Assembly (NCBI GenBank): GCA_001793855.1 | Contig: MGIR01000001.1 | Span: 8,645 to 72,644, forward strand | Direction of reading: 5' to 3' | From: Candidatus Wolfebacteria bacterium RIFCSPLOWO2_01_FULL_45_19 | Lineage (GTDB): Bacteria; Patescibacteriota; Minisyncoccia; UBA6257; GWB1-45-9 | DNA length: 64,000 nt | In this document: positions 3,775 through 62,500 of the stretch, in pieces | How the letters are laid out: every line of letters begins with the position of its first letter | How positions within the stretch are numbered: the stretch's first letter is position 1 | Made by a program: the position numbers and the translations under genes | The notes under the pieces: model-generated | The model's input: the letters and a program-made list of their open reading frames with translations, nothing else | The model's database searches: none | What the model was told of the DNA's origin: nothing

Positions 3775-4815
3775 TCATGATATGTCCTTTGGTTGCATGG
3801 GCACATTTAGAATATTCTTATAAAATTCAAGCTTCTCTATCGCGACGCCAGTGCCGCGCACAACGCAAGTTAGAGGGTCATCAATCACAACGGTTTTAAC
3901 ACCAAGCTCTTTTTCTATAAGCTGATCCATGCCTCTCAACAAACTGCCGCCGCCGCAAAGATGCACTCCGCTTTTCAGCGTATCGCCTACCAATTCCGGC
4001 GGAGTCATTTCTATAACGTCTCGAATGGCGTCTATTATCAAACGGAGAGAACGCGACATCGCCACGCGCGCCTGAGTATTTTTTATGTTAATTTCTCTCG
4101 GCAAGCCCGTTGCCATATCCCTGCCCCTGATAAGCATTTCAAGACGTTCGTCTATCGGCGTTGCGGAGCCGACTGTTTTTTTTATTTCCTCTGCCGTTGG
4201 CTCGCCTATCGCAAGCTTGAATTCTTCACGAACGAAACGAATCAGATCTTCATTTAATTTTTCTCCCGCGACTTTCAAGCTTAGCGCAGTGACTATTCCC
4301 CCAGTCGATATAACCGCGATTTCCGTGGTGCCGCCGCCTATATCAACTATCATGCTCGCGGTTGATTCGTTTATCGGCAAATCCGCGCCAAGCGCCGCGG
4401 CAAGCGGCTCTTCAATAATATATGCCCTGGCGGCTCCGGCACCGAGAACGGCGTCTTCCACCGACTTGCGCTCAACTTCGGTCAAATTGATCGGAACGCC
4501 TATAACCGCACGGCGATACCTGAAAAAACTGCTTCCAAGCTTTTGAAAAAATTTCTGAAGCATTTCCTGCGCCATATCAAAATCTGATATAACTCCGTTT
4601 ACCAGCGGCTTAACAACCTCTATATGAGATGGGGTGCGGCCAAGCATTCGACTGGCTTCGTGTCCTATCGCGTGTATCTGACTTGTTTTTGTATTCAGGG
4701 CGACCATCGACGGCTCGTTTATGACAATTCCTCTGCCAACTTGATAAATGAGCGAATTAGCGGTTCCAAGGTCAACTCCAAAATCTTGTGAAGCAAATTT
4801 TAAAAATTTAGTCAT
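3775..4815 (-). CDS. mreB: rod shape-determining actin homologue MreB
   Basis: DLGTANSLIY and the full actin fold signature. Confidence 0.9.
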   Translation of the reverse strand: MTKFLKFASQDFGVDLGTANSLIYQVGRGIVINEPSMVALNTKTSQIHAIGHEASRMLGRTPSHIEVVKPLVNGVISDFDMAQEMLQKFFQKLGSSFFRYRRAVIGVPINLTEVERKSVEDAVLGAGAARAYIIEEPLAAALGADLPINESTASMIVDIGGGTTEIAVISTGGIVTALSLKVAGEKLNEDLIRFVREEFKLAIGEPTAEEIKKTVGSATPIDERLEMLIRGRDMATGLPREINIKNTQARVAMSRSLRLIIDAIRDVIEMTPPELVGDTLKSGVHLCGGGSLLRGMDQLIEKELGVKTVVIDDPLTCVVRGTGVAIEKLEFYKNILNVPMQPKDIS

Positions 4816-4839
4816 ATTTTAACTGATACTACGCCAGTA

Positions 4840-6093
4840 TTATAATAATTTCAATATCTTCTCCAAATTCATCGTCCGCATTTCATCAGAATCACGCCGC
4901 TTAACTTCAATCTCATTTTTTGTCTTGTCGCTGATTACCAGCCTGTACGGAATGCCAATCAGGTCGGCGTCGTTGAATTTTTCTCCGGCACTCACGCCTT
5001 CGCGGTCGTCATACAATACTTCAACTCCCGCCTTTTGCAATTTGTCATATATTTTCTGCCCTCTGTCTTCTGTTTTCTGTTTTCTATTTATTGAAATCAG
5101 ATGCGCTTTAAACGGCGCAATGTTCTCCGGCCAGACTATCCCCCTTCCGTCATGAAAAACTTCCACAGCGGTTCCCATCGTGCGACCGAGACCTATGCCG
5201 TATGATCCCATAACAACGTATTTTTTTTCGCCTCGCTCATCGGTGAACCGCAAATTAAACGCCTCAGAATATTTAGTGCCTAAAGGAAAAATATTCCCAA
5301 CTTCAATAGCGCGCTTCTCCATTACCGCGCCTCCACATTTCGGACATTTGTCTCCGGTTTTAAGTTTTGATATTTCTTTATTTTCCGCGTACTCGCACTT
5401 TTCGCAGACGCAAATGGTATCCTCGCCAACGTCGGCAAGAATTTGGAATTCGTGGGTGTTGCTTACGGTAAATTCACCGCCGGCGGCCAAGGTGTAAATT
5501 GATTTAAGGCCGCAACGTTTAAATATTTTATGGTAGGCCTTGGCGACTTTTTGATAATATTTATTCAGATCATTTTCAGAAACGTGGAAGCTATACAAAT
5601 CCTTCATTAAAAACTCACGCCCTCTCAACAGGCCGGATTTGGCTCGCGGCTCATGCCGGAATTTGGTCTGAATCTGATAGGCGGCAAGTGGCAAATCTTG
5701 ATAAGAATTGACGTAACTCGCGGCAATTTCGGCAATAACCTCTTCGTGAGTCCAGCTTATGTTGAAAGACGGCTCGTCTTCGTTTCCGGCAAACACTTTA
5801 TACACCACTCCGACATCCCATCGCCCGGTCGCGGTTAAATAACGCTTGTCATGCAGGGCGGCCATCAACATTTCCTGACCACCGATGGCATCCATCTCTC
5901 CGCGAATAATATCCGCGATTTTTTTAAGCACCCGCCAGCCCAAAGGCAAAAAAGAATAAACGCCCGCGGAATTTTTGTACACAAAACCTCCGCGCGTAAG
6001 CAGTTTAGCGTTAACCGATTCTTCGTCCTTCGGCGCCTCCCGCCTTGTTTTTGAAAAAAGTTCTGATTGTCTCACGCAATCATTATAAAACAC
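4840..6093 (-). CDS. proS: prolyl-tRNA synthetase (short form without editing insertion)
   Basis: Class II motif 2 FRHEPRAKSGLLRGREFLMKDLYSF matches ProRS. C-terminal CxxC..CxxC. Confidence 0.75.
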   Translation of the reverse strand: MFYNDCVRQSELFSKTRREAPKDEESVNAKLLTRGGFVYKNSAGVYSFLPLGWRVLKKIADIIRGEMDAIGGQEMLMAALHDKRYLTATGRWDVGVVYKVFAGNEDEPSFNISWTHEEVIAEIAASYVNSYQDLPLAAYQIQTKFRHEPRAKSGLLRGREFLMKDLYSFHVSENDLNKYYQKVAKAYHKIFKRCGLKSIYTLAAGGEFTVSNTHEFQILADVGEDTICVCEKCEYAENKEISKLKTGDKCPKCGGAVMEKRAIEVGNIFPLGTKYSEAFNLRFTDERGEKKYVVMGSYGIGLGRTMGTAVEVFHDGRGIVWPENIAPFKAHLISINRKQKTEDRGQKIYDKLQKAGVEVLYDDREGVSAGEKFNDADLIGIPYRLVISDKTKNEIEVKRRDSDEMRTMNLEKILKLL

Positions 6094-8240: not shown

Positions 8241-8358
8241 TTGACTTACTATCAATTTAATGTAAAATTCAAAAATCAAAGTGCAAAATGACAATATAAA
8301 ATTTTAAAATTTTTAACTGTTGTTTTTCATTTTGATATTTACATTTTAAATTTTAACT

Positions 8359-13845: not shown

Positions 13846-13857
13846 AACTTAAAAACA

Positions 13858-13895
13858 GTTCTTGGGTTCTTCAGTTCTTACGTTCTTTAGTTCTC
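13858..13895. repeat. tandem gttcttNN octamer array (single arm) in the rplQ-rplM spacer
   Basis: gttcttgggttcttcagttcttacgttctttagttctc. Confidence 0.6.
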
Positions 13896-22307: not shown

Positions 22308-22394
22308 GCGCAGGTAGTCCCGTAGGGCGCGGGGGCAGACTGTAAATCTGTTGGCCATTGGCCCCGGTGAGTTCGACTCTCACTCTGCGCACCA
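22308..22394 (+). tRNA. tRNA-Tyr (anticodon GTA), long variable arm, CCA encoded
   Basis: Anticodon arm GCAGACTGTAAATCTGT and T-arm GTGAGTTCGACTCTCAC. The D-arm is unusual. Confidence 0.55.
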
Positions 22395-22581: not shown

Positions 22582-23787
22582 TTAGTAGTAAGTGTAAGTG
22601 GTATAACTTGAATAAGCGCTCCAAGTGCACAACCCGGCGTTCAGAGGAGAGCTAGTATTAGTAGCTTTTCTGGAACCGCCTCCGTAGGGATAACAACTTC
22701 CATCAAACGGCCAGCCATTGGCGTCGGAAGTAGGAACCGTGCCATTTTGAGCGTATAAAGACACTCCAGGACTACTGCAAGCATAAGTAAGATTTGTGCA
22801 GGTCGCGTCACTCATATAACAGTTGAAGCCATTCGTAACTCCGTTCCACGAAACCATCCAAAAGCTAACCGTGTCGGCGCCGGACTGGCAACTACTGGGG
22901 GTCGGCGGGGTACAACTATATGACGCTCCCGGAGTAGCAGTTGATGCACCATTTGCACATTGTCCCAAGAAATTATAGCCTGTGCCAGTAGTGTAATTAT
23001 CCCAATATCTGTTGCAATCCTCATCAATGAGAGGCGTTGCCGAACCGGACCCTCCTACTGCCGAACAAGTCGCATTTTGCGAGAACGCCGCGACTGACGC
23101 GCTGTCCGAAATCCGTTGCAGTCTGATTTGCAGTCCGGTTGCATTCCAAGTCGTTGCGGTAAAGTTATCGCCATTCAATTGAGCGGCCGCGTTGGTCGTG
23201 TTGGCATCGCAATTGTAAGTGGCATAGCTTAAGTCAGTCCATACTGAACCGGTGTAATACTGCAACCGACAGCCGCCCACCCCTCCGTTGCCTGTGCCGG
23301 CAGTCCAGCTGACGGTGAAGTCCCTGCGCCTGACCGTCTGAGTTAAGACAAGCGAAGTCGGCGGAGAAGAGGCGCCCCAAACACAAGAAGTCGCGCCGTC
23401 GCTGGTTTTAACCCAGCCGGTTCCGTTGCAGGCGCAGGTCGTGTAACCTGCAGTCATAGCCAACGATTTGCTTGTTGAAGCGTCACAAGTAAAAGGACTG
23501 GAAGAGTTTATTGGAAATTTTAACGCTCCTGTCGCCTCAATAATCCCGTTAATCGTGAGCTTGCTTGCCGGAGAAACTGTGCCGATGCCGACATTGCCGG
23601 TTCCGGGGTCAAATACTAAACCAGCGGTGCTTGTCGCGTTGCCTACCCGAAACCCGCCGCTCACGTCAAAAGTGTACTCCGGCGTTATTCCGATGCCGAT
23701 GTTTCCGCTACTGAACTTAAGGTTTCCACCGCCGATGCCTGGGCTTAAACTGGCGGGGCCGGTGAATCCGAGCGCGACAAAAACCAA
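22582..23787 (-). CDS. Cys/Thr/Gly-rich secreted or surface protein
   Basis: N-terminal hydrophobic segment. GTGNVGIGT repeats and many Cys. Confidence 0.55.
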   Translation of the reverse strand: MVFVALGFTGPASLSPGIGGGNLKFSSGNIGIGITPEYTFDVSGGFRVGNATSTAGLVFDPGTGNVGIGTVSPASKLTINGIIEATGALKFPINSSSPFTCDASTSKSLAMTAGYTTCACNGTGWVKTSDGATSCVWGASSPPTSLVLTQTVRRRDFTVSWTAGTGNGGVGGCRLQYYTGSVWTDLSYATYNCDANTTNAAAQLNGDNFTATTWNATGLQIRLQRISDSASVAAFSQNATCSAVGGSGSATPLIDEDCNRYWDNYTTGTGYNFLGQCANGASTATPGASYSCTPPTPSSCQSGADTVSFWMVSWNGVTNGFNCYMSDATCTNLTYACSSPGVSLYAQNGTVPTSDANGWPFDGSCYPYGGGSRKATNTSSPLNAGLCTWSAYSSYTTYTYY

Positions 23788-23863
23788 GAAACCGGAAACT
23801 AAGATACTTATTGATATTAATAGATATTTATTGATATTCGTGAATCCAGATTAATTTGTTTGC

Positions 23864-24331
23864 TCACCAGACGCATGCCGTTATGCCGTCGCTGGTTTTA
23901 ACCCAGCCGGTCCCGTTGCAGGCGCAGGTCGTGTAACCTGAAGTCAATGACAATGAGCCGGCATTTGAAGCGTTACAGGTAAAAGGAGCCGATGCGTTAG
24001 CCACCAATTTGAATCCCCCCAAAGTGGATTCAATAATCCCGTTGATCATGAGCTTGCTTGCCGGAGAAACGGTGCCGATGCCGACATTGCCGGTTCCGGG
24101 GTCAAATACTAAACCAGCGGTGCTTGTCGCGTTGCCTACCCGAAATCCGCCGCTCACGTCAAAAGTATATAAAGGCGTTATTCCTAAGCCGGTGTTTCCG
24201 CCAGAAGTTACAAAAAACCCAGAGCCAGTTCCCGGAGAAACCGAAGGGCCTGTAAATCCCAACACAACCGATACAAAGATGCCGGCGGATACTATTATAC
24301 CTGCGGATATCAACAGATATTTATTGATCAT
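23864..24331 (-). CDS. truncated paralogue of the 22582-23787 gene (tandem partial duplication)
   Basis: About 95% nucleotide identity over ~450 bp with 23390-23790. It diverges after TSDG. Confidence 0.5.
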   Translation of the reverse strand: MINKYLLISAGIIVSAGIFVSVVLGFTGPSVSPGTGSGFFVTSGGNTGLGITPLYTFDVSGGFRVGNATSTAGLVFDPGTGNVGIGTVSPASKLMINGIIESTLGGFKLVANASAPFTCNASNAGSLSLTSGYTTCACNGTGWVKTSDGITACVW

Positions 24332-24409: not shown

Positions 24410-25363
24410 TCAGGGGCTCCAGTTAATGATGATGTCGGTTACGGTTGGGCCGACGGTTCGTCCAGTATCTGTTTCTAAAATAACTTTGTAGCGCCAGTAA
24501 CGTTTGTCGGTGTGACAAGTAAGGTCAATTTTGGATTGAATATTCGGGCCACCCGGATTGTAAAAATCGCCAACGCTACAGTTGGGTCCTCCGGGTCCGA
24601 CAAACGCGCCGTCGCCGGTCAATTTATCTCCTCCCCAGCCGACGCCGGTATCGCAAGTCGGAGAATTTGTCGCGCCATTGGAACAATTCGCGGCGGCTAT
24701 CCGAAAAAAAACGTTCGTGCCGCTTGGTTGCGTTCCCTGCCACATAATGGTGTTTATGGCGGAGCCGCCCTCAACCTGCGAGTCAAAAATACTTGAAATT
24801 AAAGTTCCTTCCGCGGGGTAGTTTGTCCAGCTTGTTTTGACTTTGTAATTGGAAGTTCCGCAAGTGTTTGGAGGACCGGCGCAATTGAAACTGAACCAGC
24901 CGACATCATTATTCCACGCCCAACCGGAGAAAATTCCCGTGCTCGGGTCAACGGATACTTTATAATTAGATTCCAAACAATTGTCATTTAGGCAGTTGAA
25001 ACTAATCCAGCCGACGCCGTCGTTCCACGCGAAGCCGCCAAGCTCGTTGGTGCTTGTGTTGTTGGTTACCTTAAAATTGCTCTGACCGCATATGTCCCCT
25101 GCCGGCGTTGTTTGGCAATTCAAAATAATTTCTTCGACAGTTGAGCTTGCCCAGCCGCGAAGTTCTGTTTCGTCAACAAAAACGTTGTTAGTGCCGTAAA
25201 AGTCAATCCAACCGATGGAATCGTTCCAGGCCCATTGTGTATATTCGGGTGGATTGTCCGGAATGATATTTGTTACGGCGAAAACCACCAGCCATGACGC
25301 GGATATGGCAGTTATAAATATAATAAAAAATATAATTAGTTTTTTCATACTAATATCCTTCAA
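24410..25363 (-). CDS. secreted repeat protein (~40 aa GWAWNDxxGWIxFNC repeats)
   Basis: N-terminal TM or signal sequence, then four Trp/Cys-containing repeats. Confidence 0.55.
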   Translation of the reverse strand: MKDISMKKLIIFFIIFITAISASWLVVFAVTNIIPDNPPEYTQWAWNDSIGWIDFYGTNNVFVDETELRGWASSTVEEIILNCQTTPAGDICGQSNFKVTNNTSTNELGGFAWNDGVGWISFNCLNDNCLESNYKVSVDPSTGIFSGWAWNNDVGWFSFNCAGPPNTCGTSNYKVKTSWTNYPAEGTLISSIFDSQVEGGSAINTIMWQGTQPSGTNVFFRIAAANCSNGATNSPTCDTGVGWGGDKLTGDGAFVGPGGPNCSVGDFYNPGGPNIQSKIDLTCHTDKRYWRYKVILETDTGRTVGPTVTDIIINWSP

Positions 25364-26531
25364 TCCTTATTTGCCCCGACGTGGCGTAATCAATGTTTGT
25401 TGAAGTGTTAAAACTCGCGGTGGTAGTAGCGGTAATTGGATTGTCTGTCGGATCTGTATAGCCGCCGCTCCAGTCGGTCTGCGAAAACAGGCGGTTAGAA
25501 TGACGGGTAAAATATCTGAACTGGCTGAAAGAATCAGTCGCGGCTAAAATTTCCCAGCCGGAAGTTACGGTTATTTTCTGAGTGGACGGGTCGTCGGTTC
25601 CGCTCACGGCTATTGCTCCGTTCGCGTCTCTATTTACGTTCTCAACATAAAAAGAGCGCATATATCTGTCACTGTTATAAATCTGCCAAATTTCATCGGC
25701 GGATAGGGCGCGGTCGTAAATGCGGACGTCGTCCAGCAGACCGTCAAAATAACCAGCAGAAACACGCCCGATGTCCATCGCCGAAGCGCCAACGCCTGTC
25801 GTGTCGGTTATAGCGACGTGGCGCCAAACCGCTGTAATAGTCGCGGACGCGGAACTGCCGTCCACATACACGATGGAGGCGGGGAAGCCCGTTGCGACAA
25901 CGTTGCTGTTTGCGTCTATTTCAATTTGAGCCGTCCCGTTCATATCAATTATTTTTTTTGATACTATAACATCCGCCTTCATCCAAAACATCACCGTCTT
26001 AATGCCGGCTCCAACATTGCCCAAAACGACATAATCCTCCGTCCCGTCAAATTCCAAACATCTGCTCAATTTGCAGGCGGAAGTTGAGGTCGCGCCGCCG
26101 GTGACTGTGCCGTCGTTATTGTTGTTCGTAGCGTCAAAAGCCGTAGTCGTTCCTACTGCCTCGTCAAATTTCCAGTAACCAACCAAGCCGTTAATAATGT
26201 CATCGCTGATAAGCCCCTCTTCGCCTTGTATAATCGTGGACGTCGCTCCAAACTTAATAAAATATTTATTCGCGGAGCCCTTATCTAAATTGTAAATATC
26301 GTGCCAGTTTTTTTCGGACATTCCCGCAAGCGAAATAAAATATTCGGATGTCAGACCGGCCGCTGTCTGCATCTGTTTGCTCTGCACGTTGCCGCGTAAT
26401 ATTCCCACGATACTAACCACCACTCCGCCGACAATAATGGCGCCAACGGCAATGGCGACGATAATCTCAAGAAGGGACTGCCCTTTTTGAGCTTTTAGCT
26501 TATAGCTTTTAGCTTTTAGCTGATTTTTCAT
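25350..26531 (-). CDS. type IV pilin-like protein with C-terminal LamG/concanavalin-like domain
   Basis: Prepilin leader KGQSLLEIIVAIAV (Glu at +5). LamG_3-like signature FDGLLDDVRIYDRALSADEI. Confidence 0.65.
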   Translation of the reverse strand: MKNQLKAKSYKLKAQKGQSLLEIIVAIAVGAIIVGGVVVSIVGILRGNVQSKQMQTAAGLTSEYFISLAGMSEKNWHDIYNLDKGSANKYFIKFGATSTIIQGEEGLISDDIINGLVGYWKFDEAVGTTTAFDATNNNNDGTVTGGATSTSACKLSRCLEFDGTEDYVVLGNVGAGIKTVMFWMKADVIVSKKIIDMNGTAQIEIDANSNVVATGFPASIVYVDGSSASATITAVWRHVAITDTTGVGASAMDIGRVSAGYFDGLLDDVRIYDRALSADEIWQIYNSDRYMRSFYVENVNRDANGAIAVSGTDDPSTQKITVTSGWEILAATDSFSQFRYFTRHSNRLFSQTDWSGGYTDPTDNPITATTTASFNTSTNIDYATSGQIRIEGY

Positions 26532-26708
26532 TGCAGTTTTTTAATTATTGTTGTCAACATTTTTTGAGCTTCCGTGAGAAATGCTTCAGCTTTAGAAAAG
26601 TCAACGTCTTTGTAAAGCTCTTTGGCTATTAATATTTGCGTTTCAAGCTCCGCGAAAGATTCTACGTACATAAATAATTTCTAAAAGCTACGAGCTAACA
26701 GCTATAAG

Positions 26709-27167
26709 CTATCTCGTGATATTTCCATTTTCCAAAACGCTTACATTGATTATACCGTCTCCGACGGTGGTTAGCAAAGTAAATGTAGCCGTATTATCAG
26801 GGACGCCGCTTATTTTAAGAAAATTGATTATCGTTGAATTTCCCTGCGCCGGAGAGCTGAATTCAATATGCGACGGCAAAGTTACCGAACGATGCGTAGT
26901 TGAAGCGCCACCGATTGTCTCGGCGTAAAAAATATCGTACCTATCCCCGTCACCAGCCGGCGCGTTTACATATACTCCCCAAAAACTTGATTCCAGTTCG
27001 CTTATGGAATTTTGCTGGGCTTCGCGAAGAGTTTGAACAAGCTTGTCTGATTCAAATTCCAAAGTACGTTGAACCCGCAAGTTTTGAATCGTGAGCAAAC
27101 CTATACCGCCGACAATCACCGTTATGCCGAGCGAAATCAGAAGCTCAATTAAGGTAAAACCCTTCAT
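26709..27167 (-). CDS. type IV pilin/pseudopilin
   Basis: MKGFTLIELLISL class III signal. Confidence 0.75.
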   Translation of the reverse strand: MKGFTLIELLISLGITVIVGGIGLLTIQNLRVQRTLEFESDKLVQTLREAQQNSISELESSFWGVYVNAPAGDGDRYDIFYAETIGGASTTHRSVTLPSHIEFSSPAQGNSTIINFLKISGVPDNTATFTLLTTVGDGIINVSVLENGNITR

Positions 27168-28375
27168 ATACTACCAATAAGTTGATAGATCGGAACTATT
27201 ATTGAAAGCGCTATTGTTCCTATTATAACTCCGAGAACGAGAAGCATTGCCGGTTCAAGGAACGACACAAGTGTTTTTATTGAATTGTCTATTTCCGATT
27301 CGTAAAACTTTGAAAGCGTGTCCAGGATGTCTTCCAAATGCCCGGCTTTTTCCGAAATCGCGACAAGATTGACGACAACTTTCGGAAAAACCTGCTCCCG
27401 TCTGAACGCATCGCCGACGGTCATCCCCTTAACGAGGCCCTCGCGCGAAACGCGCATAAGCGCCTCTTTCAATTCCTCCCAACCGACGGCCCGCGAAGTA
27501 ATTTCAAGCGAATCGGTTATATGCAAACCGGCGCGCATAAGAGACGAGAACGTGGAAGTAAATCTCTGCAAAGACGTTTTGCGTAAAACTTCGCCGAGAT
27601 ACGGAACGCGAAACGCGAAACGCTGAAGGACGCGCCTCGCGTTTATGTTTTTTGAAAGCACGTACCAGCCGCCGAAGGCCGCGCTCGCAAGCAAAATAAG
27701 AACATAAATAATATTATTACTGATAAAAAGCCCGACACCGAACACCACTCTGGAGAAAAGCGGCGGCTCAAATCCTCCGGTCATAAAAACTTCGGCTATT
27801 TTCGGCAAAGCGAAAGTAACCAAAAGAAGAAGAATGATGAAAGACGCGGCGAGAAGCACAACGGGATAAATGAGCGCGGAACGGATACGGCCTCGCAGTT
27901 CCTGTTCTCGCTCCAAAGAAACCGACAGGTCCTCAAGAACTTTGTCCAGAGTTCCGGATTTCTCGCCGGCGCGAATAAGATTGACAAACGCGGACGAAAA
28001 AAATTTCGGATATTGCGCGAAAGTGGTGTAAAACGGATTTCCTTTTTCAAGATTTGAGCGTATCTGAAGCAGAAGGGCTTTGATGGTCGGTTTTTCAAAA
28101 TCGTTTATAAGAATGTCTATTGCTTTGAAAAGGTCAGTTCCGGCCCTAAGCATCAGCGCGAGATATTTCGTCAAAAACAACTGATCAAGCGTGGTAAACG
28201 TGGGACCAAAAAGGCGGGCGCGAACCCCACCGCCAAAACCTTTGGCGATTTTTATAGAAATAGGGCGCAGGCCTTGCGCGCCAAGCTTCGCGAGCAATTC
28301 GTCGGTGTTCCCGGCTTCCATGCTATCTTCAACTATTTTTCCTTCCGCGTTAGACGCGACGTAATGGAATAACAT
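27164..28375 (-). CDS. pilC: type IV pilus platform protein PilC / GspF family
   Basis: Two GspF-type repeats and polytopic membrane topology. Confidence 0.8.
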   Translation of the reverse strand: MLFHYVASNAEGKIVEDSMEAGNTDELLAKLGAQGLRPISIKIAKGFGGGVRARLFGPTFTTLDQLFLTKYLALMLRAGTDLFKAIDILINDFEKPTIKALLLQIRSNLEKGNPFYTTFAQYPKFFSSAFVNLIRAGEKSGTLDKVLEDLSVSLEREQELRGRIRSALIYPVVLLAASFIILLLLVTFALPKIAEVFMTGGFEPPLFSRVVFGVGLFISNNIIYVLILLASAAFGGWYVLSKNINARRVLQRFAFRVPYLGEVLRKTSLQRFTSTFSSLMRAGLHITDSLEITSRAVGWEELKEALMRVSREGLVKGMTVGDAFRREQVFPKVVVNLVAISEKAGHLEDILDTLSKFYESEIDNSIKTLVSFLEPAMLLVLGVIIGTIALSIIVPIYQLIGSI

Positions 28376-30089: not shown

Positions 30090-30093
30090 AGTT

Positions 30094-30162
30094 GTAATTT
30101 TGAATTTCTAATTTCAGTCATTTAAAATTGGTTCGAAATTCAAAATTCAAAATTGAAAATTA
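30094..30162. repeat. aaaattc heptamer palindrome
   Basis: taattttgaatttctaatttc ... cgaaattcaaaattcaaaattgaaaatta. Confidence 0.6.
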
Positions 30163-30707
30163 AAACCGAGCCCACTGAATATTATAACAGAGATGGATAT
30201 TGGTAGCCAAAGCCAATATAACGGAATACGCTTTTGTTGTTTATGAATAATGAATAATGAAGTATGAATTATGAGATATATGGACAAGACAGCGGCGAGC
30301 GCATACATCCATCCCGGGTGTCCCGCGAGAAAAAGCGCCCCAGCGGCGATGTACGGCTCTTCCTTTTCAAAAAAGCGGTCTTGGAATTTGCGGTTTAAAA
30401 ATTTCGCGCCGAGCAAAACAAAAAGCGCCGCGAAAAACGCCAAAAACGGCTGGATTAGAAAATTCGTGAAACTGTACAGCGCGAAATAACTGAAGCCGCG
30501 ATACGGCGGAACGAGATAGCTTGCAGGAGGGCCGCCGCCATGCCAAGCAAGAAACTGTTCCCGCATCCAATATGCCTGGATTGCGAAAATTACAATGACA
30601 GACAACCAAAACAGCGTTCTAAAAATTCGCGACTTATGCTCAAAAAAGAAGCGCAGTAGAATCTGCGCTCCCAAAAAAACAACCGCGGCGACTAAGCCAA
30701 CGGTCAT
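30147..30707 (-). CDS. polytopic membrane protein (possibly prepilin-peptidase-like; unassigned)
   Basis: Five to six TM helices between the pilin and pilB. No clear A24 motifs. Confidence 0.35.
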   Translation of the reverse strand: MTVGLVAAVVFLGAQILLRFFFEHKSRIFRTLFWLSVIVIFAIQAYWMREQFLAWHGGGPPASYLVPPYRGFSYFALYSFTNFLIQPFLAFFAALFVLLGAKFLNRKFQDRFFEKEEPYIAAGALFLAGHPGWMYALAAVLSIYLIIHTSLFIIHKQQKRIPLYWLWLPISISVIIFSGLGFNFQF

Positions 30708-31712: not shown

Positions 31713-31994
31713 GATTTATATTATAGCAAAACTTTTCTCGTTGTCCCAAGAGTCGAGACTTGATGGCTCATCGACTAATACCATCCCGCCGAAGCGGGGT
31801 CGACACTAGTTTTCATTATTGAAAACTAAGTTTAATTAATCCACGCACAGCTTCCGCTACGCGTGCCTTGTTACGACTTCGTCCGTGTCACCGAACTTAC
31901 CCTAACCCCGCAAAACGGAGTTTTAGGTATTCCCGGCTTCCTTGACGTGACGGGCGGTGAGTACAGGACTCGAGAACGTATTCACCGCGGCATA

Positions 31995-32029
<35 letters not shown>

Positions 32030-32193
32030 AGGGCGAGTTGCAGCCCTCAATCCGAACTTGGGCCGGTTTTAAGGGATTAGCTCCACCTTACGGTTTGGCA
32101 ACCCTTTGTACCGGTCATTGTAGCACGAGTGTAGCCCAGGGCATCAGAGGGCCATGCGGATTTGACGTCGTCCCCTCCTTCCTCCCAGCACTT

Positions 32194-32359
32194 TGTTCGC
32201 AAACGAACAAAGCAATTTCTAAACTCTAATATCTAAATCCTAAACAAATTTTAAAAATCAAATCTCAAATTCGAAACGTTTGGAACATTTGAATTTGGAA
32301 TTTTGAGATTGTTTAGAGATTAGGATTTCGAATTTAGGATTTCTTTGCGCTTGTGCGCA
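32194..32359. repeat. ~165 nt palindromic heptamer-repeat element forming an expansion in the 16S h40 loop
   Basis: Closed by CAGCACTT/AAGTGCTG. The arms tctaaactctaatatctaaatcctaaac / gtttagagattaggatttcgaatttaggattt match the element at 21795. Confidence 0.7.
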
Positions 32360-32725
32360 AAGTGCTGGGCAGTTTTGCCTGACACGTATAACAGACAATA
32401 GGGGTTGCGCTCGTTTCCCCACTTAAGGGAACGTCTCACGATACGAGCTGACGACAACCATGCAGCACCTGTCCTGACGTCCTTGAGAGACAACACGCCT
32501 TTCAGCATGTCTTCGTCAAGATTTCTAGCCCTGGTAAGGTTCCTCGTTTAGTATCGAATTAAACCTCATGCTCCACCGCTTGTGCGAGTCCCCGTCTATT
32601 CCTTTGAGTTTTAAGCTTGCGCTCGTACTTCCCAGGCGGCCTGCTTAACGCGTTAGCTTCGCCACTCCGAGGGTCGATACTCGAAACAGCCAGCAGGCAT
32701 CGTTTAGGGCGTGGACTACAAGGGT

Positions 32726-33856
32726 TGAATTTGTTACTTCGCGACAATAGTATTATTGTCACGCGAGCCGAACATTTCTGTCGGCTTCTCTATGTTGCCA
32801 TAGAGTCCGGACTATATCTTTATCTGAAAGCCGTCCATCGAGCCAGTTTCTTCTCGTATTCGGATAAAATAACCGAACGAGGAAAGCGGCTCAAACTTAC
32901 AACCTCAGATATCCAGCGTTCTTGAAATTGAGAATCTTTATAGAGAAGTATTGCTTTGCGCAACATGTCCGGCGTTGGTATATGCGGCAGAATGATGCGA
33001 AGAAACTTTTTTAATTCCTCCTGCGATCTGATCCATATCCGCCAATATTGCCGCCGCTCTCCTTTATAGATACGGGATATGGGAGATACGATATTTTTTA
33101 TATCCCATACTACTTTAAGGTAGCGAGATAGTATTTTGACAGATTCTTTGTCAAAGCCATCGGTACAAAATACTCCCTTTCTTCCTCCGTAACTAATAAG
33201 TGAGCCATCATCACACCACCATACGGCGAGCGATAACGGGGTCATTCGGTTCAGCCAAGTGCGTCTAATGCGCAATCGGTTATTTTTATACGTTAAGCGA
33301 TGCAATTCAGTTAACGCTGGCAGATTTCTGCTTATAAACCGCCACTTGCTGTTTACGCTGAAACCGTCGGCCCTTTGGACACTAATACTTTTCTCTCGCG
33401 CTATCTCTTGAAGCATATCTGCTTTCCATAAGAGATAATCTTTTTGTGTTTCCGAATGACGAATTTGTAAATTCGCATTGGCACATTTTTTTTGAATCTT
33501 CAACGAACCGTCTCCTAGGATTGTTCCTAAAATAACGGCTCGCGCTTGATCCGACAAAGGCACATACTTTTTATCATTTTGCATATTATTATTTTATACG
33601 CTCATGACATAATGCGCCAACTATCTTAACTCAATTTCATAGTCTCTACGGGGTCAAACAAAATGAAATTTGAACTTTCAATTTTGCATTCTGTCGACTT
33701 CCCTCGGGATTGTCCGTCCGACAGGACGGAGTTCCCCGATACAGCTAGATGCTCACCCCGACGTCGCCGTCGAGGGGGACACCTTTGACAACCCCGATTT
33801 ACATCGGGGCTCTTTGTTTCTACGGGCAAAAGGAAAACCCTCCACAAAGATTTCGT
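32726..33856 (-). mobile_element. group I intron in 16S (near E. coli position ~790) carrying a homing endonuclease ORF; boundaries approximate
   Basis: It interrupts GGATTAGATA | CCCTTGTAGTCC. P7 elements GTAGAGACTATG (R) and AAGATATAGTCC (S) are present. Confidence 0.75.
32820..33584 (-). CDS. LAGLIDADG homing endonuclease (double-motif)
   Basis: ILGDGSL and WCDDGSL motifs. Confidence 0.8.
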   Translation of the reverse strand: MQNDKKYVPLSDQARAVILGTILGDGSLKIQKKCANANLQIRHSETQKDYLLWKADMLQEIAREKSISVQRADGFSVNSKWRFISRNLPALTELHRLTYKNNRLRIRRTWLNRMTPLSLAVWWCDDGSLISYGGRKGVFCTDGFDKESVKILSRYLKVVWDIKNIVSPISRIYKGERRQYWRIWIRSQEELKKFLRIILPHIPTPDMLRKAILLYKDSQFQERWISEVVSLSRFPRSVILSEYEKKLARWTAFR

Positions 33857-34457
33857 ATCTAATCCTTTTTGCTCCCCACGCTTTCGTGTCTCAGAGTCAG
33901 GAACGTCCCAGCCAGCTGCCTTCGCCTTTGGTGTTCCGCACGATATCAACGGATTTCACCCCTACACCGTGCGTTCCACTGGCCTCTGACGTCCTCTAGT
34001 TCGGCCGTATCTCTTGCAGCCTCAGGGTTGAGCCCCGAGATTTAACAAAAGACGCACCGAACATCCTACACACGCTTTACGCCCAATAAATCCGGATAAC
34101 GCTTGAGGTCTACGTTTTACCGCTGGTGCTGGCACGTAGTTACCCACCTCTTTCCACAGGGTACCGTCAACCTCGCGCGTAGCGCGAGAACCGAAAAACA
34201 CATGAACGTAAAAACGTAAGAACAAGTTGTTCTTTGGTTTATAGGTTCTTTAGTTTTTTAGTTCTTGTGCTACGCACAAGGCTTCTTCCCCTGCTATCGC
34301 GGTTTACGACCCGAAGGCCTTCTTCCCGCACGCGGCGTCGCTCGATCAGGCTTTCGCCCATTGTCGAATATTCTCGACTGCTGCCTCCCGTAGGAGTATG
34401 CACCGTGTCTCAGTTGCATCGTCGGGGAACAGGCTCTCACCCCCCCTACCGGTCATA

Positions 34458-34492
<35 letters not shown>

Positions 34493-34817
34493 CAGACCTA
34501 AGCCACTCCTGAAGCGATTTGCATCTTTACTCCGACACCCTTGCGGGGTCGGAGATTATTTGGAATTACCTCGTCTTTCGACGAGCTATGCCAAACTTCA
34601 GGGTATGTACTAAGGCGTTACTGACTCGTTCGCCACTGCCTCGCGCCTTGCGCGAGAACAAAAAAACGAAAGAACAAAAGAACTTAAGAACAAAAAGTTC
34701 TTGGGTTCATAAGTTCATGGGTTTTTTAGTCCTTGTGCAAAACACAAGGCCGTTCGACTTGCATGCCTTATCCACGCCGCCAGCGTTCATCCTGGACCAG
34801 GATCAAATCCTCAATAA

Positions 34818-34892
34818 GAGCTTTCAGCTTTTAGCTTATAGCTTATAGAAGGTAACCCCCCTAACAGCTAACAGCTATCAGCTAACAGCTCG
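34818..34892. repeat. agctNNN heptamer palindrome immediately upstream of the 16S 5' end
   Basis: agcttttagcttatagcttatag ... ctaacagctaacagctatcagctaacagct. Confidence 0.6.
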
Positions 34893-35296
34893 AAATACTT
34901 GGGACAACAAGAAAAATTTTGCTTGTTTTACTTAATTTGGACTCTTTTTTATTTTCCTTTTTTATTTTTAAAACAACGGTCAAATCTCTCTGGATTCAAT
35001 AAAACATCCACCGCTAACCCGTCTGCGACGGACTAGCGGTGGACGTCTTCAAATTAAATTATAGAATTGATTTTAAAATGTTAATCGTCCCATCCTTCAA
35101 TCATGTTTCCAGTATAACCGCAGCAAAAAACTTGTCAAGTGATGATTTTAATTGGAAGAATTAAACGCTGTGGATAACTCACTTACATACTCAACGATCG
35201 TTAAGTATGTAAGTAAATTGTTATACTTGCCCCCCATATCTATGCATAGATGTGGGGGCTTGCTTTCAAAAATGGTTTATTATAATATGTGAAACT

Positions 35297-35554
35297 ATGA
35301 AGCCCGATATACATCCGAAATATTATGAAAAAGCCAATGTTCGTTGCGCTTGTGGAAATGAACTCACGGTTGGCTCCGCCAAGCAGGAGTTAAAAGTGGA
35401 AATATGCTCAAAGTGTCACCCATTTTATACAGGACAGGAAAAACTGATTGACACGGCCGGACGCGTGGAGAAATTCAAATCGCGCAAAGCAAGAGCGGAA
35501 GCCGCGCCCAAAAAAGAAAAAAGACCGCGCGCCAAAAAACAAAAGATGTCCTAA
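35297..35554 (+). CDS. rpmE: 50S ribosomal protein L31 (C-terminal Lys-rich extension)
   Basis: [10 protein letters not shown], with CxC...CxxH zinc-type motifs. Confidence 0.85.
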
Positions 35555-35557
35555 GCG

Positions 35558-36274
35558 ATGGTTCAAAAAGTAATTCTTGAAATTCGCGCCGGGGCCGGTG
35601 GAGACGAAGCCGGCATTTTCGCCGGCGACCTCGCGCGCATGTACCAAAAATATGCCGCTCAAAAGGGATGGAGATTTTCTATTATTGATTTTAATCAAAA
35701 CGATTTAGGTGGATATAAAAATTTGTCGGCTGAAGTAGCCGGCGAGAATGTTTATGAGATTTTGAAATATGAGATTGGCGTACACCGCGTTCAACGAATA
35801 CCAAAAACCGAAAAGGGCGGACGCGTGCACACTTCAACCGCCTCGGTCGCGGTTTTGCCGGAAGTGGAAGCAAAAGAAGTAAACTTAAATCTAGGCGATT
35901 TGGAAATAACTTTTTCACGCGGAGGCGGACCGGGCGGACAAAACGTAAACAAGGTTGAAACTGCGGTAAGAGTACTCCACAAACCGACTGGCATCGTCGT
36001 CGCCTCGCGCTCCGAACGTTCCCAGCATGCCAACCGCGAGAAAGCGATGGAGATACTTCGCGCCAAACTTTACGAAGAACAGCGGCGCCAGGCAGTTGGC
36101 TCAATTACCGAACTCCGCCGCGAGCAAATCGGCTCCGCGGAGCGTTCAGAAAAAATACGCACCTATAATTTTCCGGAAGACCGAATCACCGACCACAGAA
36201 TCGGAAAAAAATTCCATAACATAGAAAAGATTCTTGACGGCAACTTGGACCCTATCGTGAAAGCGTTCAGCTAA
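35558..36274 (+). CDS. prfA: class-I peptide chain release factor lacking N-terminal domain 1 (RF1-like, PKT tripeptide, GGQ)
   Basis: It aligns to E. coli RF1 domains 2-4 from [13 protein letters not shown] onward. GGQ is present. There is no room upstream for domain 1. Confidence 0.65.
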
Positions 36275-39201: not shown

Positions 39202-39467
39202 CAATTTTTGATTTAAGAATTTTCATAAAAGAATTTGCCGCCAATCAACACATTTTTTAATAACTTTTAAATTGAAAAAATGTACTGAAATGAGTTATTA
39301 TTAACTCATTAGAAAAACTTGAAATTGTCATTCGTGCGGCTCCGCCGCCTTTCCGAATTTTCGCGGGCCTTCGCCTCGCCGAAGTGGCTTCGGCCACGCA
39401 GGCGGGGGGAATTTTCCGGAAAAATGTGTTTGGACTAATTCAAGAATACTGCACCACGTAAAATACA

Positions 39468-40529
39468 ATGCGAATTCTTGCCATTGAAACAAGTTGCGAC
39501 GAAACAGCTATAGCTGTTGTGGATGCGAAAGGCGGCCTGAAACGGCCGCGTTTTAAGATTGTCGCGAATGAAGTCGCTTCACAGATTAAAATACATCGCC
39601 CGTTCGGCGGCGTTGTCCCGAATCTTGCTAAGCGAGAACATATAAAAAACCTCCCCATTTTATTTAAAAGAATTCTTAAAGCTAAAGGCTTAAAGCTAAA
39701 AGCTGATATTATCGCCGTTACCGTTGGACCAGGGCTTGAACCGGCGCTGTGGACCGGAATTAATTTTGCAAAAGAGCTCGCGAAGAAATATAAAAAACCG
39801 CTTATCGGTGTTAACCATATGGAAGGGCACCTCTACTCGAACTGGTTTTTACCAGTTCGAGAAATTCAAAATTCAAAATTCAAAATTCAAAATTCCATCA
39901 AGACGATTGTTTTTCCAGCAATCGTTTTGGTTGTGAGCGGCGGCCACACCATTCTTTTGAAGATGGATTCTGTAACAAAGCGGAAAAAACTCGGTGAAAC
40001 TCGCGATGACGCGGCGGGGGAGGCATATGATAAAGTCGCGCGATTGCTTGACTTGCCGTATCCCGGCGGACCGGAGATAGAAAAGATAGCCAAAAGAGGA
40101 AATTCCGAAGCCGTACAATTTCCGCGCCCTATGCTTAACCAGAAAAATTATGACCTCAGTTTTTCCGGCCTAAAAACCGCAGTTTTGTATTATCTGCGTG
40201 ATAACCCTCTAAAAGCCAAAAGCTTAAAGCTAAAAGCTGATATCGCCGCTTCGTTTCAGCAAGCCGCGATTGATGTTCTTGTCGCAAAAACGATGAACGC
40301 CGCTAAGGAATACAAAGCTAAATCCGTGATGCTTTGCGGCGGAGTAGCCGCAAACAAAGCTCTTCGCAAAGAACTTAAAATTCAAAGCTTAAAATTTAAA
40401 GCTGATTTTTACGCTCCGGAATTTGCGTTGAATACGGACAACGCGGCAATGATAGCCGCCGCGGGTTATGTAAGTTTTTTGAAAAAGAAAAAACTGCGTC
40501 TGACCGCGCAGTCAAATCTCAGCTTGTGA
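39468..40529 (+). CDS. tsaD: tRNA N6-adenosine threonylcarbamoyltransferase TsaD, with a repeat-derived internal insertion
   Basis: Collinear with E. coli TsaD (HMEGH, GGHT, DDAAGEAYDK). It has ~14 extra residues (REIQNSKFKIQNSIKT) encoded by gaaattcaaaattcaaaattcaaaattcc. Confidence 0.85.
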   Translation: MRILAIETSCDETAIAVVDAKGGLKRPRFKIVANEVASQIKIHRPFGGVVPNLAKREHIKNLPILFKRILKAKGLKLKADIIAVTVGPGLEPALWTGINFAKELAKKYKKPLIGVNHMEGHLYSNWFLPVREIQNSKFKIQNSIKTIVFPAIVLVVSGGHTILLKMDSVTKRKKLGETRDDAAGEAYDKVARLLDLPYPGGPEIEKIAKRGNSEAVQFPRPMLNQKNYDLSFSGLKTAVLYYLRDNPLKAKSLKLKADIAASFQQAAIDVLVAKTMNAAKEYKAKSVMLCGGVAANKALRKELKIQSLKFKADFYAPEFALNTDNAAMIAAAGYVSFLKKKKLRLTAQSNLSL

Positions 40530-46865: not shown

Positions 46866-46945
46866 AAACTAAAGAACATAAGAACATAAGAACGTAAGAA
46901 CGGTTTTGAGTTCATCAGTTCATTCGTTCATAAGTTTTTAAGTTA
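46866..46945. repeat. aagaac/gttctt octamer palindrome
   Basis: ctaaagaacataagaacataagaacgtaagaac ... gttcatcagttcattcgttcataagtt. Confidence 0.7.
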
Positions 46946-61945: not shown

Positions 61946-62409
61946 AGTTGGAAAAAATAGTTGTTAACGTCGGGGTAGGGCGATTGAGTCAGGCGCCTAA
62001 TTTTTCGGATAAAATTCTTCCGGAAATTGATAAAGAACTTGCTTTAATCACGGGCCAGAAGCCGTCTCCGCGCGGCGCGAAACAATCTATAGCCGGTTTT
62101 AAAATTCGCGCCGGAAATGTTGTTGGACTGAAAGTTACTTTGCGTGGTAAAAGAATGCGCGATTTCTTGAGCCGTTTGGTGAATATAGCTCTACCGCGAG
62201 TAAGAGATTTCAGGGGCGTTGACTTGAAAAATGTGGACAAATCCGGTAATCTTAGCATCGGCTTTCGTGAACACTCCGTTTTTCCGGAAATAAATCTTGA
62301 AACCAGCCGGGTCAATTTCGGATTGGAGGTAACATTGGTGCCGAAGATTCGTATTAGAGAGAAGGCGATTGAAGCATATCGGCAATTGGGAGTGCCGTTC
62401 AAAAAATAA
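61918..62409 (+). CDS. rplE: 50S ribosomal protein L5
   Basis: Conserved sequence. Confidence 0.9.
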   Translation: MQKMQSDNLKLEKIVVNVGVGRLSQAPNFSDKILPEIDKELALITGQKPSPRGAKQSIAGFKIRAGNVVGLKVTLRGKRMRDFLSRLVNIALPRVRDFRGVDLKNVDKSGNLSIGFREHSVFPEINLETSRVNFGLEVTLVPKIRIREKAIEAYRQLGVPFKK

Positions 62410-62500
62410 ACTAAAGAATTAAAGAACCAAAGAACGGAAGAGTAAAGAACGGTTTATGAGTTCTTAAGTTCATAAGTTCTCAAGTTAAACAAATTAAACA
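62410..62500. repeat. aagaac/gttctt octamer palindrome
   Basis: ctaaagaattaaagaaccaaagaacggaagagtaaagaac ... gttcttaagttcataagttctcaagtt. Confidence 0.7.

Follow-up and report, generated by a model that had tools for sequence, protein, structure and literature searches.

Heptamer arrays and fold-back palindromes in the reading frame of tsaD in a Candidatus Wolfebacteria genome and its relatives

How tandem 7-nt units of a kind that also lies between genes come to be translated inside a universal enzyme is the question raised by the tsaD gene (39468-40529, plus strand) in a 64,000-nt stretch of Candidatus Wolfebacteria bacterium RIFCSPLOWO2_01_FULL_45_19, a tiny, uncultured groundwater bacterium; the whole stretch is called the window below. 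The gene is generally essential in bacteria. In the window it encodes 353 residues in an open reading frame (ORF) that stays open through all its repeat arrays, as judged from the ORF list, matches to the PDB and model superposition, and the protein is identical to OGM91582.1 (Candidatus Wolfebacteria; Parcubacteria, Candidate Phyla Radiation, CPR). TsaD chains of the PDB match residues 1-339 with E = 4e-83, and sequence, fold, the HxxxH metal-binding motif, SGGHT and the Asp of TDN place the protein in the TsaD/Kae1/Qri7 family of tRNA N6-adenosine threonylcarbamoyltransferases. Residues H117, H121, G158-T161 and D324 are invariant among 50 homologues and all catalytic motifs are retained. 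The AlphaFold2 model, built on an alignment of 50 homologues, reached a mean predicted local distance difference test (pLDDT) of 90.2 and a predicted template modelling score of 0.89, and superposed on E. coli TsaD (YgjD) with template modelling scores of 0.87/0.92 and a root mean square deviation of 2.6 Å.

An inverted copy of tsaD codons and five heptamers at site B

The array that raised the question, here named site B, occupies 39861-39895 (plus strand, 35 nt). It opens with GAAATTC, continues with four AAAATTC units and encodes E132-S143 (EIQNSKFKIQNS). Tandem Repeats Finder reports it at 39862-39895 with period 7, 4.9 copies and 100% matches. A preceding interpretation of the DNA, the sequence-only reading, had recognised the array and ended it at 39889, after 29 nt, which is one unit short. 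The array-coded residues fall within the peptide REIQNSKFKIQNSIKT between HMEGH and GGHT, where the window TsaD was said to have about 14 extra residues; relative to Thermotoga maritima TsaD the HxEGH to GGHT loop is longer by 15. Residues 132-143 are the only segment of the model with pLDDT below 50, and this is exactly the array-coded stretch, so that the suggestion to look for the insertion in a surface loop led to a loop predicted to be disordered. By the model, the outcome at site B would be a Lys-rich loop of 12-15 residues on an unchanged catalytic core.

The proposed comparison with orthologues confirmed the indel. P0002, the closest relative found (75-79% identity), has the basal site B loop of 21 residues, and its DNA aligns with a clean gap of 45 nt, with neither hairpin nor array in that place. 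In pairwise DNA alignment with P0002/L071 the in-frame insertion is at 39848-39892 (plus strand), a placement ambiguous by a few nucleotides, and identity to P0002 is 0.04 over the insertion stretch and 0.76 over the remaining gene. The 45 nt contain the loop and 3' arm of a hairpin, followed by most of the heptamer array. This hairpin, CTCGAACTGGT tttt ACCAGTTCGAG at 39836-39861 (plus strand), encodes YSNWFLPVRE and is perfect, with all 11 bp paired between the arms 39836-39846 and 39851-39861 around a 4-nt loop. The native YSNW codons CTCGAACTGGT yield its 3' arm ACCAGTTCGAG when reverse-complemented, and part of the apparent insert (PVRE) is therefore a fold-back copy of tsaD itself. To the right of the array lies an imperfect hairpin, CAAGACGATTG / CAATCGTTTTG (39899-39929, plus strand; 10/11 paired, 9-nt loop), and at the equivalent FPAIALLVS codons two related loci, L018 and L011, have a stronger palindrome than the window. 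Perfect arms within an intact ORF, recurring at a matching position in related genes, are what defines a coding palindrome, and the site B hairpin is one. The addition at site B is thus composed of the upstream 11 nt copied in inverted orientation and five AAAATTC units, and comparison of the genes supports the view that it is a lineage-specific in-frame addition, its tract being built of the heptamer that also occurs between genes.

Further arrays in tsaD and in the window

Three more arrays are found in tsaD, all on the plus strand. Site A (39674-39709, AAAGCTN type) encodes LKAKGLKLKADI, which lies where helix 51-74 ends and in the loop after it, and is just one residue longer than T. maritima TsaD. 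Site C (40208-40243, AAAGCT-type) encodes LKAKSLKLKADI and is common to relatives. The sequence-only reading had taken its peptide, PLKAKSLKLKADI (40205-40243), for a second insertion made of the AAAGCT unit; the unit was correctly named, but the site adds only five residues relative to T. maritima and relatives share it. Site D (40373-40408) mixes AAAATTC and AAAGCTT units, encodes LKIQSLKFKADF and has the same length as in P0002, with an identity of 0.47. In the model, sites A, C and D are at helix ends and in loops with pLDDT of about 77-97. A 36-nt AAAGCT-type segment occurs three times in the gene, at A, C and D, C being 92% and D 75% identical to A. This segment and the arrays of sites A and D had gone unmentioned before, as had the hairpin at the left edge of site B and the enrichment of arrays in tsaD across the Patescibacteria described below. 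Together with site B, sites A (0.56) and D are the stretches of tsaD least conserved relative to P0002.

The arrays keep their period while their units change. Among the 120 best TsaD homologues, a 7-residue peptide period was detected in 27 at site A and in 18 at site C, with 0-7 for other lags. Of the 18 site C arrays 12 have the same segment length of 29 residues, and the clear cases share the register while their units differ. Between the window and P0002 an identical G/A difference is repeated in the same phase in three consecutive units of site C, and in P0002 sites A and C are unlike each other, in contrast to the 92% identity in the window. Within one protein, sharing of units between sites is 5-10 times more frequent than between the sites of different proteins. 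These data show that the units of an array change in concert. From the alignments, site C is an old array common to the relatives and not a new insertion, and at sites A and D array sequence takes the place of native sequence, the length changing little or not at all.

The second gene in question is type IV pilin-like (25350-26531, minus strand), with an N-methylation motif and a LamG-like domain. An AAAGCTN array at 26486-26522 (minus strand) encodes, as the sequence-only reading had proposed, the pilin leader; this leader, (M)KNQLKAKSYKLKAQKG, precedes the G/QSLLE cleavage motif, the full leader and start of the mature protein being MKNQLKAKSYKLKAQKG/QSLLE. PF07963 matches residues 13-37, and the leader ending in Gly, the hydrophobic N-terminus and Glu at +5 are those of a type IV prepilin; the ending ...QKG/QSLLE is common to homologues. 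Type IV prepilin peptidases cleave off the leader peptide. Given the N-methylation motif and the ...KG/QSLLE site, it is this cleaved leader that the array encodes. An inverted partner array lies at 26681-26711 (minus strand; AGCT-based units AGCTTAT, AGCTGTT, AGCTCGT and AGCTTTT, then AG) and, again as proposed, overlaps the TAG codon that ends the upstream pilin gene 26709-27167; the 30-nt arms of the pair are 83% complementary and 161 nt apart. Leaders of pilin homologues span 4-54 residues and many look array-coded (MKIKNWKLKISEQKG, MHSIKIKNLKFKILHDESG, MEKYSTKLKVKSLKFKVNG), the short leaders MRKG and MNKKG being the basal state. The simplest reading is that the pilin ORF has grown into the 3' arm of a pair of arrays lying between two cistrons. 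In the pilus gene cluster there is also a tandem duplication at 23395-24328 (493-nt period, 1.9 copies, 78% identity), which spans the uncharacterised ORFs 22582-23787 and 23864-24331, both free of Pfam matches.

The site B unit is shared with intergenic DNA, as had been claimed. The pattern AAAATTCAAAATTC, allowing at most one mismatch, has eight matches in the window against 0.38 expected; they lie at 39861-39895 and 30135-30155, with two single ones at 8264 and 32291. The intergenic copies belong to a periodic hairpin with AAAATTC / GAATTTT arms (30091-30166; arms 30096-30115 and 30135-30154, 90% complementary) that starts 2 nt upstream of the start codon of a pilB-like gene (30089). The AAAGCT-type pattern AAAGCTNAAAGCT has 12 matches against 0.95 expected, and arrays of this type are found three times in tsaD, once in the pilin leader and at 34819-34848 just upstream of the 16S rRNA gene, where an AGCTTTN / CTAACAG periodic hairpin (34819-34890) adjoins the upstream side of the 5' end. 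A degenerate heptamer array at 5055-5089 (minus strand) lies in the gene for proline--tRNA ligase (proS, 4840-6093), at the start of the anticodon-binding domain.

A lag scan of the 64 kb compared with shuffled sequences shows that these are members of a larger class. There were 12 arrays at lag 7 and 8 at lag 8, with the harmonics 14 (9) and 16 (4), compared with 0-1 at other lags and 0-0.05 in shuffles, so that tandem 7-nt units of several copies occur in many arrays and far above chance. The units are heterogeneous (AGATTTA, TTTTAGC, TTCAAAA, ATGAATA, CTAACAG and others). The majority of the arrays are intergenic and six are in coding DNA, namely the four in tsaD, the pilin leader and the proS array; a further coding run, AACGCGA x2.7 at 27605-27623 in a gene similar to the type II secretion system F family, may be due to chance. 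A typical intergenic array is an inverted pair giving a long hairpin in which core helices of 4-6 bp alternate with small internal loops, as at 46872-46944, 54353-54442, 57355-57449 and 62409-62486.

These four sites are also part of a period-8 hairpin family, AAGAAC-NN / NN-GTTCTT, which fills short gaps between co-oriented genes and is found in addition at 51471-51540 and 13856-13894. Several of its hairpins stop about 10 nt or less before the start codon that follows, where no Shine-Dalgarno sequence is obvious, and they may have a role in processing, termination or translation initiation. The 16S rRNA gene (31829-34818, minus strand) is 2990 nt long compared with 1533 nt for the model, and a LAGLIDADG endonuclease ORF (32820-33584) is among its insertions. 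Within it are period-8 array hairpins, one in the V1 region (34655-34723) and one at 34200-34266, as well as a further hairpin with an array at 32200-32330; array hairpins intrude into the rRNA gene too.

Other observations in the window concern its organisation. The minimum of the cumulative GC skew is at about 34.9-35.2 kb, where the coding strand switches (mostly minus before, plus after), a pattern suggestive of a replication origin next to the 16S gene, some 4.5 kb from tsaD. Nearby, an in-frame TAA (35552-35554) divides a release factor gene with PCRF and RF-1 domains (35252-36274, plus strand) into the ORFs 35252-35554 and 35558-36274, which are in the same frame; an ATG is found two codons past the stop and a Lys-rich stretch before it, and the break is not a canonical prfB +1 frameshift site. 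A tRNA-Tyr predicted by ARAGORN at 22308-22394 (plus strand) is absent from the Rfam scan at gathering thresholds and overlaps a crude ORF on the opposite strand.

tsaD and its arrays among relatives

Site B varies widely among the homologues. In the 117 of the 120 proteins in which both loop motifs could be located, the loop is 21-49 residues long with a median of 31, and the basal length of 21 was found in five. The loops contain 19.6% Lys and have a net charge of +0.20 per residue, and the extra residues resemble translated heptamers, for instance NSKFKIQNSK, ISNSKFLISK, KAKSYKLKAK and FGFRISDFGF.

For the DNA, 67 tsaD loci from species-representative genomes were compared, and of these 62 were recruited blind to arrays, through the peptide patterns WTGINFAK or MLNQKNYD or otherwise without an array-derived pattern. 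In these 62 loci tsaD had 50 lag-7 arrays in 66.5 kb (0.75 per kb), other coding DNA 15 in 316.7 kb (0.047 per kb) and non-coding DNA 12 in 76.4 kb (0.157 per kb), giving a density in tsaD about 16 times that of neighbouring coding DNA. In the tsaD genes of the whole set, lag 7 gave 56 arrays and other lags 0-3. More than half of the coding arrays outside tsaD are in valS, which with about 0.12 per kb is the second-richest in-frame host; valS is located directly downstream of tsaD in 31/67 loci (L005-L064; e.g. L036:5182-7488 and L064:5090-7261).

Palindromes are enriched in tsaD as well. Perfect palindromes of at least 9 bp occur at 0.54 per kb in tsaD, 0.19 in other coding DNA, 1.0 in intergenic DNA and 0.054 in shuffled tsaD. 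Within the 45 nt that follow HxEGH, 12/55 genes have a stem of 10 bp or more, compared with 9/680 control windows. The stem sequences at these codons vary between lineages, two examples being TACAGTTTTTTGC/GCAAAAAACTGTA, encoding YSFLLSQKTV, and TCTTTGCCAAC/GTTGGCAAAGA, encoding IFANFVGKE, with a stem of 16 bp in L032. In an ungapped alignment of 17 hairpin-bearing genes, which were selected for the hairpin, all eight consensus pairs had changed on both sides. Additional coding palindromes recur at TsaD residues ~295 and ~313, the latter giving KFFTPVKNF in place of the usual FFAPEFALN with unchanged length. In L018 and L011 a full two-arm periodic hairpin is in frame at site B, that of L018 having a minimum free energy of -55.1 (z = -9.2).

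The imprint of translation on the arrays is seen in the codons. The consensus unit would make an in-frame stop in 26 of the 58 tsaD arrays, and in every one of these 26 the affected codon is one base off the consensus (TAA to TAT, TTA, CAA, GAA or AAA); these patches give the recurrent Y, L, C or H in peptides of the LKAKS[Y/L]KLKA type. A heptamer array yields an identical 7-residue repeat in all three frames, which on the A-rich strand is hydrophilic (K/N/Q/S-rich), and at most one codon per 21 nt requires a single-base patch against a stop. The sense strand is A-rich in 44/58 arrays, and when read on the opposite strand 45/58 units contain stops. The best fit to these figures is that the DNA pattern would be primary and that coding selection would filter it.

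Several related observations concern other repeats near or in tsaD. Heptamer arrays were found less than 100 nt from tsaD in three loci outside the CPR, L067:3893-3971, L061:~4984 and L065:~712 (Pyrinomonadaceae, Balneolaceae and Anaerolineae), of which two were recruited through an array-derived pattern and are thus subject to ascertainment bias; L067, which was not, has a perfect ATTTACC x5 array with its partner just upstream of tsaD. Palindromes of another, GC-rich class are translated in TsaD loops of L012:~1658 (residue ~282), L008 at site B, and P0052/P0055/P0111/P0112. One, TTTTCCGCCAAAGGCG-GATC-CGCCTTTGGCGGAAAA, encodes FSAKGGSAFGGK, and others yield the peptides KADPPRAEK and IPAKAGIH...WIPGQARND, so more than one class of hairpin repeat is found in TsaD loops. 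A search with (KIQNSKF)x6 in a set of 5.8 billion proteins returned just ORFs of 30-74 residues and was uninformative on host proteins; apart from one weak match these had no Pfam domain, they are probably miscalled ORFs on long arrays, and they come partly from cyanobacteria and Bdellovibrio, with short ORFs in Nostoc, Okeania, Moorena and Microcoleus.

Origin and meaning of the arrays

On balance we favour, as the probable origin of the tract, change of the DNA in situ by slippage, fold-back and short-tract copying, the products being tolerated in loops and leader peptides. The tract at site B would then be one product of a process active across this genome and the Patescibacteria, which would generate and maintain short palindromes and tandem arrays of 7- or 8-nt period. 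Replication slippage may be one step, intra-strand template switching may perfect and lengthen inverted repeats, and short-tract copying between arrays may homogenise units and carry them to other arrays. Most products would be intergenic paired arrays with periodic-stem hairpins, and those in coding DNA would survive only where the peptide is harmless, selection retaining the translatable and structurally harmless variants. We infer that the mechanism is mutational and that the inserts have no dedicated function.

Some results weigh against this account. The enrichment in tsaD exceeds what simple tolerance would give, as it is above that of other coding DNA, non-coding DNA and valS alike. Arrays and perfect stems stay at fixed sites across deep lineages, a persistence that selection for a cis-acting function could explain just as well. 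In a comparison of whole loci at the DNA level, with at most one mismatch, units were no more alike within loci (0.108) than between them (0.118; permutation 223/500), although exact unit identity within loci was enriched about 3-fold; the signal was clearer for sites of a single protein and for the 36-nt segment. No driving enzyme or repair defect was identified, and the strongly basic character of the site B loop leaves room for a role in the protein.

The alternative that survives best, though a doubtful one, is that the hairpins and arrays of tsaD are gene-specific functional cis-elements, acting in mRNA or DNA and held by selection. They could act through ribosome pausing, RNase access, an array-binding protein or perhaps feedback via A-rich ANN codons dependent on N6-threonylcarbamoyladenosine (t6A). 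Such elements would agree with the density of arrays in tsaD, which is above that of non-coding DNA too, with some genomes in which tsaD has 4-5 arrays and the 8 kb of flanking DNA has none, with the perfect stems changed on both sides at the same codons in many lineages, and with the periodicity that sites A and C keep despite changed units. But units and positions vary and many loops are occupied, which does not resemble one element, and the site B insertion is wholly absent in P0002 and the loop basal in 5/117 homologues. Folding energies of the sense and antisense strands of 15 periodic hairpins were about equal, with no consistent asymmetry and hence no support for selection at the RNA level. 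The other array hosts, valS and proS, have no link to ANN codons, and a connection to ANN codons or t6A by way of these hosts was rejected on that ground. The idea that the units mimic the 7-nt anticodon loop (U36-A37-A38) was dropped, the perfect AAAATTC array having no UAA. More broadly, we can only tentatively entertain tsaD as a sink, specific to this gene across the phylum, of heptamer arrays and perfect coding palindromes, either with these as working cis-elements, such as a sensor or regulator of expression based on ribosome transit over A-rich codons or on an array-binding protein, or with tsaD as the target of a gene-specific mutational mechanism.

It is improbable that the array-coded peptides are themselves adaptive, as Lys-rich loops on TsaD and aminoacyl-tRNA synthetases that tether tRNA or replace contacts that were lost with partner subunits. 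The lengthening of the site B loop, its Lys content and charge, the A-rich bias of the sense strand and the fact that the other hosts, ValRS and ProRS, also bind tRNA are all compatible with this explanation. The composition is however the direct outcome of translating A-rich heptamers, there is no conservation at the peptide level, T-rich arms coding FGFRISDFGF are likewise tolerated and close relatives do without the loop.

[quoted passage not shown] Heptamer units are common to intergenic hairpins and genes, complete two-arm hairpins are in frame in some tsaD genes, and units are shared between sites of one gene. In addition, one sister strain has a gene for a Y1 transposase some 5 kb upstream of tsaD. 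Yet the 64 kb examined showed no consensus and no family of about 100-150 bp with near-identical copies, the shared parts being a 7-nt unit or a 36-nt intragenic segment, and neither terminal inverted repeats nor a target-site duplication were found, with no direct duplication at the junctions. The 45 nt start with an inverted copy of tsaD's own codons, unit sequences vary between arrays, and sites A and D were overwritten with little or no length change. What holds of the RPE analogy is therefore the result, namely that repeat DNA is translated where a protein tolerates it; membership of such a family and its mechanism do not hold, there being no conserved multi-copy element of about 100-150 bp and the 45 nt being partly inverted host codons. 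That mobile hairpins had some part in the process keeps a low probability. The Y1 transposase (PF01797) of this sister strain, L068, is at 4120-4833 of its sequence; synteny with the window is lost upstream of infB, and an indel-rich stretch with about 20 extra GC-rich nt lies just upstream of the tsaD start (window 39413-39431).

Three further assemblies from other samples, 99.6-99.9% identical to the window over 11-13 kb, bear on the two remaining explanations. All have the five units of site B, with a single A>C at 39892 as the only difference there, and unit number did not vary among the four assemblies. A phase-variation switch, in which gain or loss of a 7-nt unit shifts the tsaD frame off and on, would suit a perfect array (100% matches) whose unit is not a multiple of three; it is very unlikely and was rejected on the concordance of the four independent assemblies, 4/4 with five units, while in addition tsaD is generally essential and the arrays of orthologues are mostly degenerate. 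An assembly or sequencing artefact, to which short tandem repeats are prone, can practically be dismissed, as had been asked of the earlier claim, given arrays of the same length in the three other samples, the open ORF and comparable tracts in orthologues across the phylum. In one sister strain 4 of about 23 substitutions are inside arrays, and three of these (46878, 46886 and 46894) are in phase within the 8-mer array 46872-46902.

The arrays combine traits of several known repeats. Heptanucleotide repeats are known as the short tandemly repeated repetitive (STRR) sequences of heterocystous cyanobacteria and as TAACTGA repeats in Beggiatoaceae, Cyanobacteria and Bacteroidetes (PMC4679880), and heptameric repeats are generally in excess in bacteria (PMC4692102); their function is unsettled, binding of regulators (S1, Csp, Csr) having been proposed (PMC4679880; PMC4692102). 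The arrays of the window resemble them in having 7-nt units, few copies per array and many mostly intergenic arrays, often just before start codons. They differ in that no single unit appears to dominate and period 8 occurs beside period 7, in the inverted pairs forming periodic hairpins, in their occurrence also in the 16S gene and in frame in conserved enzymes, with the hotspot in tsaD, and in the lineage, the Patescibacteria (CPR). RPEs are elements of about 150 bp in defined families, each with a conserved peptide, and are in frame in Rickettsia genes (PMC10969869). Like RPEs and MITEs, the repeat DNA here is translated within housekeeping proteins at positions compatible with the fold, whereas the addition in the window is 45 nt of partly host-copied sequence and tandem heptamers, with no family consensus.

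Coding palindromes are known from nematomorph mitochondria, where template switching is the proposed homogenising mechanism (PMC6649704), and protein change by template switching is known from yeast (PMC8604942). The nematomorph palindromes are likewise perfect inverted repeats in coding sequence with both arms translated, kept complementary, and with a functional protein, but they reach 284 bp, whereas the stems here are 8-23 bp, lie in bacterial chromosomes, occur together with tandem arrays and cluster in a single gene family. The tandem repeats of Borgs, between and within genes, evolve fast and create disordered protein regions (PMC9879509). The likeness is in tandem repeats within and between genes that add disordered protein segments. 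Borg repeat units within genes are reportedly multiples of three nucleotides, whereas the unit in the window is 7 nt with a 7-residue peptide period, stops are patched and the host is a universal housekeeping enzyme. No report of heptamer arrays, periodic hairpins, tsaD insertions or a tsaD hotspot in CPR was found in the literature searched. We rate the arrays as known kinds of repeat in a new combination, with the hotspot in tsaD as the unexplained feature.

For sequence analysis, the arrays give rise to false small ORFs, make loops and 16S rRNA genes look more diverged than they are, and may seed false homology matches in CPR metagenomes. The puzzle is why, among about 300 neighbouring genes surveyed, it is tsaD that forms the hotspot. 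If the arrays were functional they would constitute a novel class of regulatory element within genes, and cis-elements or targeted mutation, if true, would mean a new intragenic control or a targeted diversification in a universal tRNA-modification enzyme. The findings show how genomes that are very small and poor in repair can reshape universal enzymes too, by palindromes and 7-nt arrays written into coding DNA, where the arrays are kept periodic by concerted change and translatable by single-base patches.

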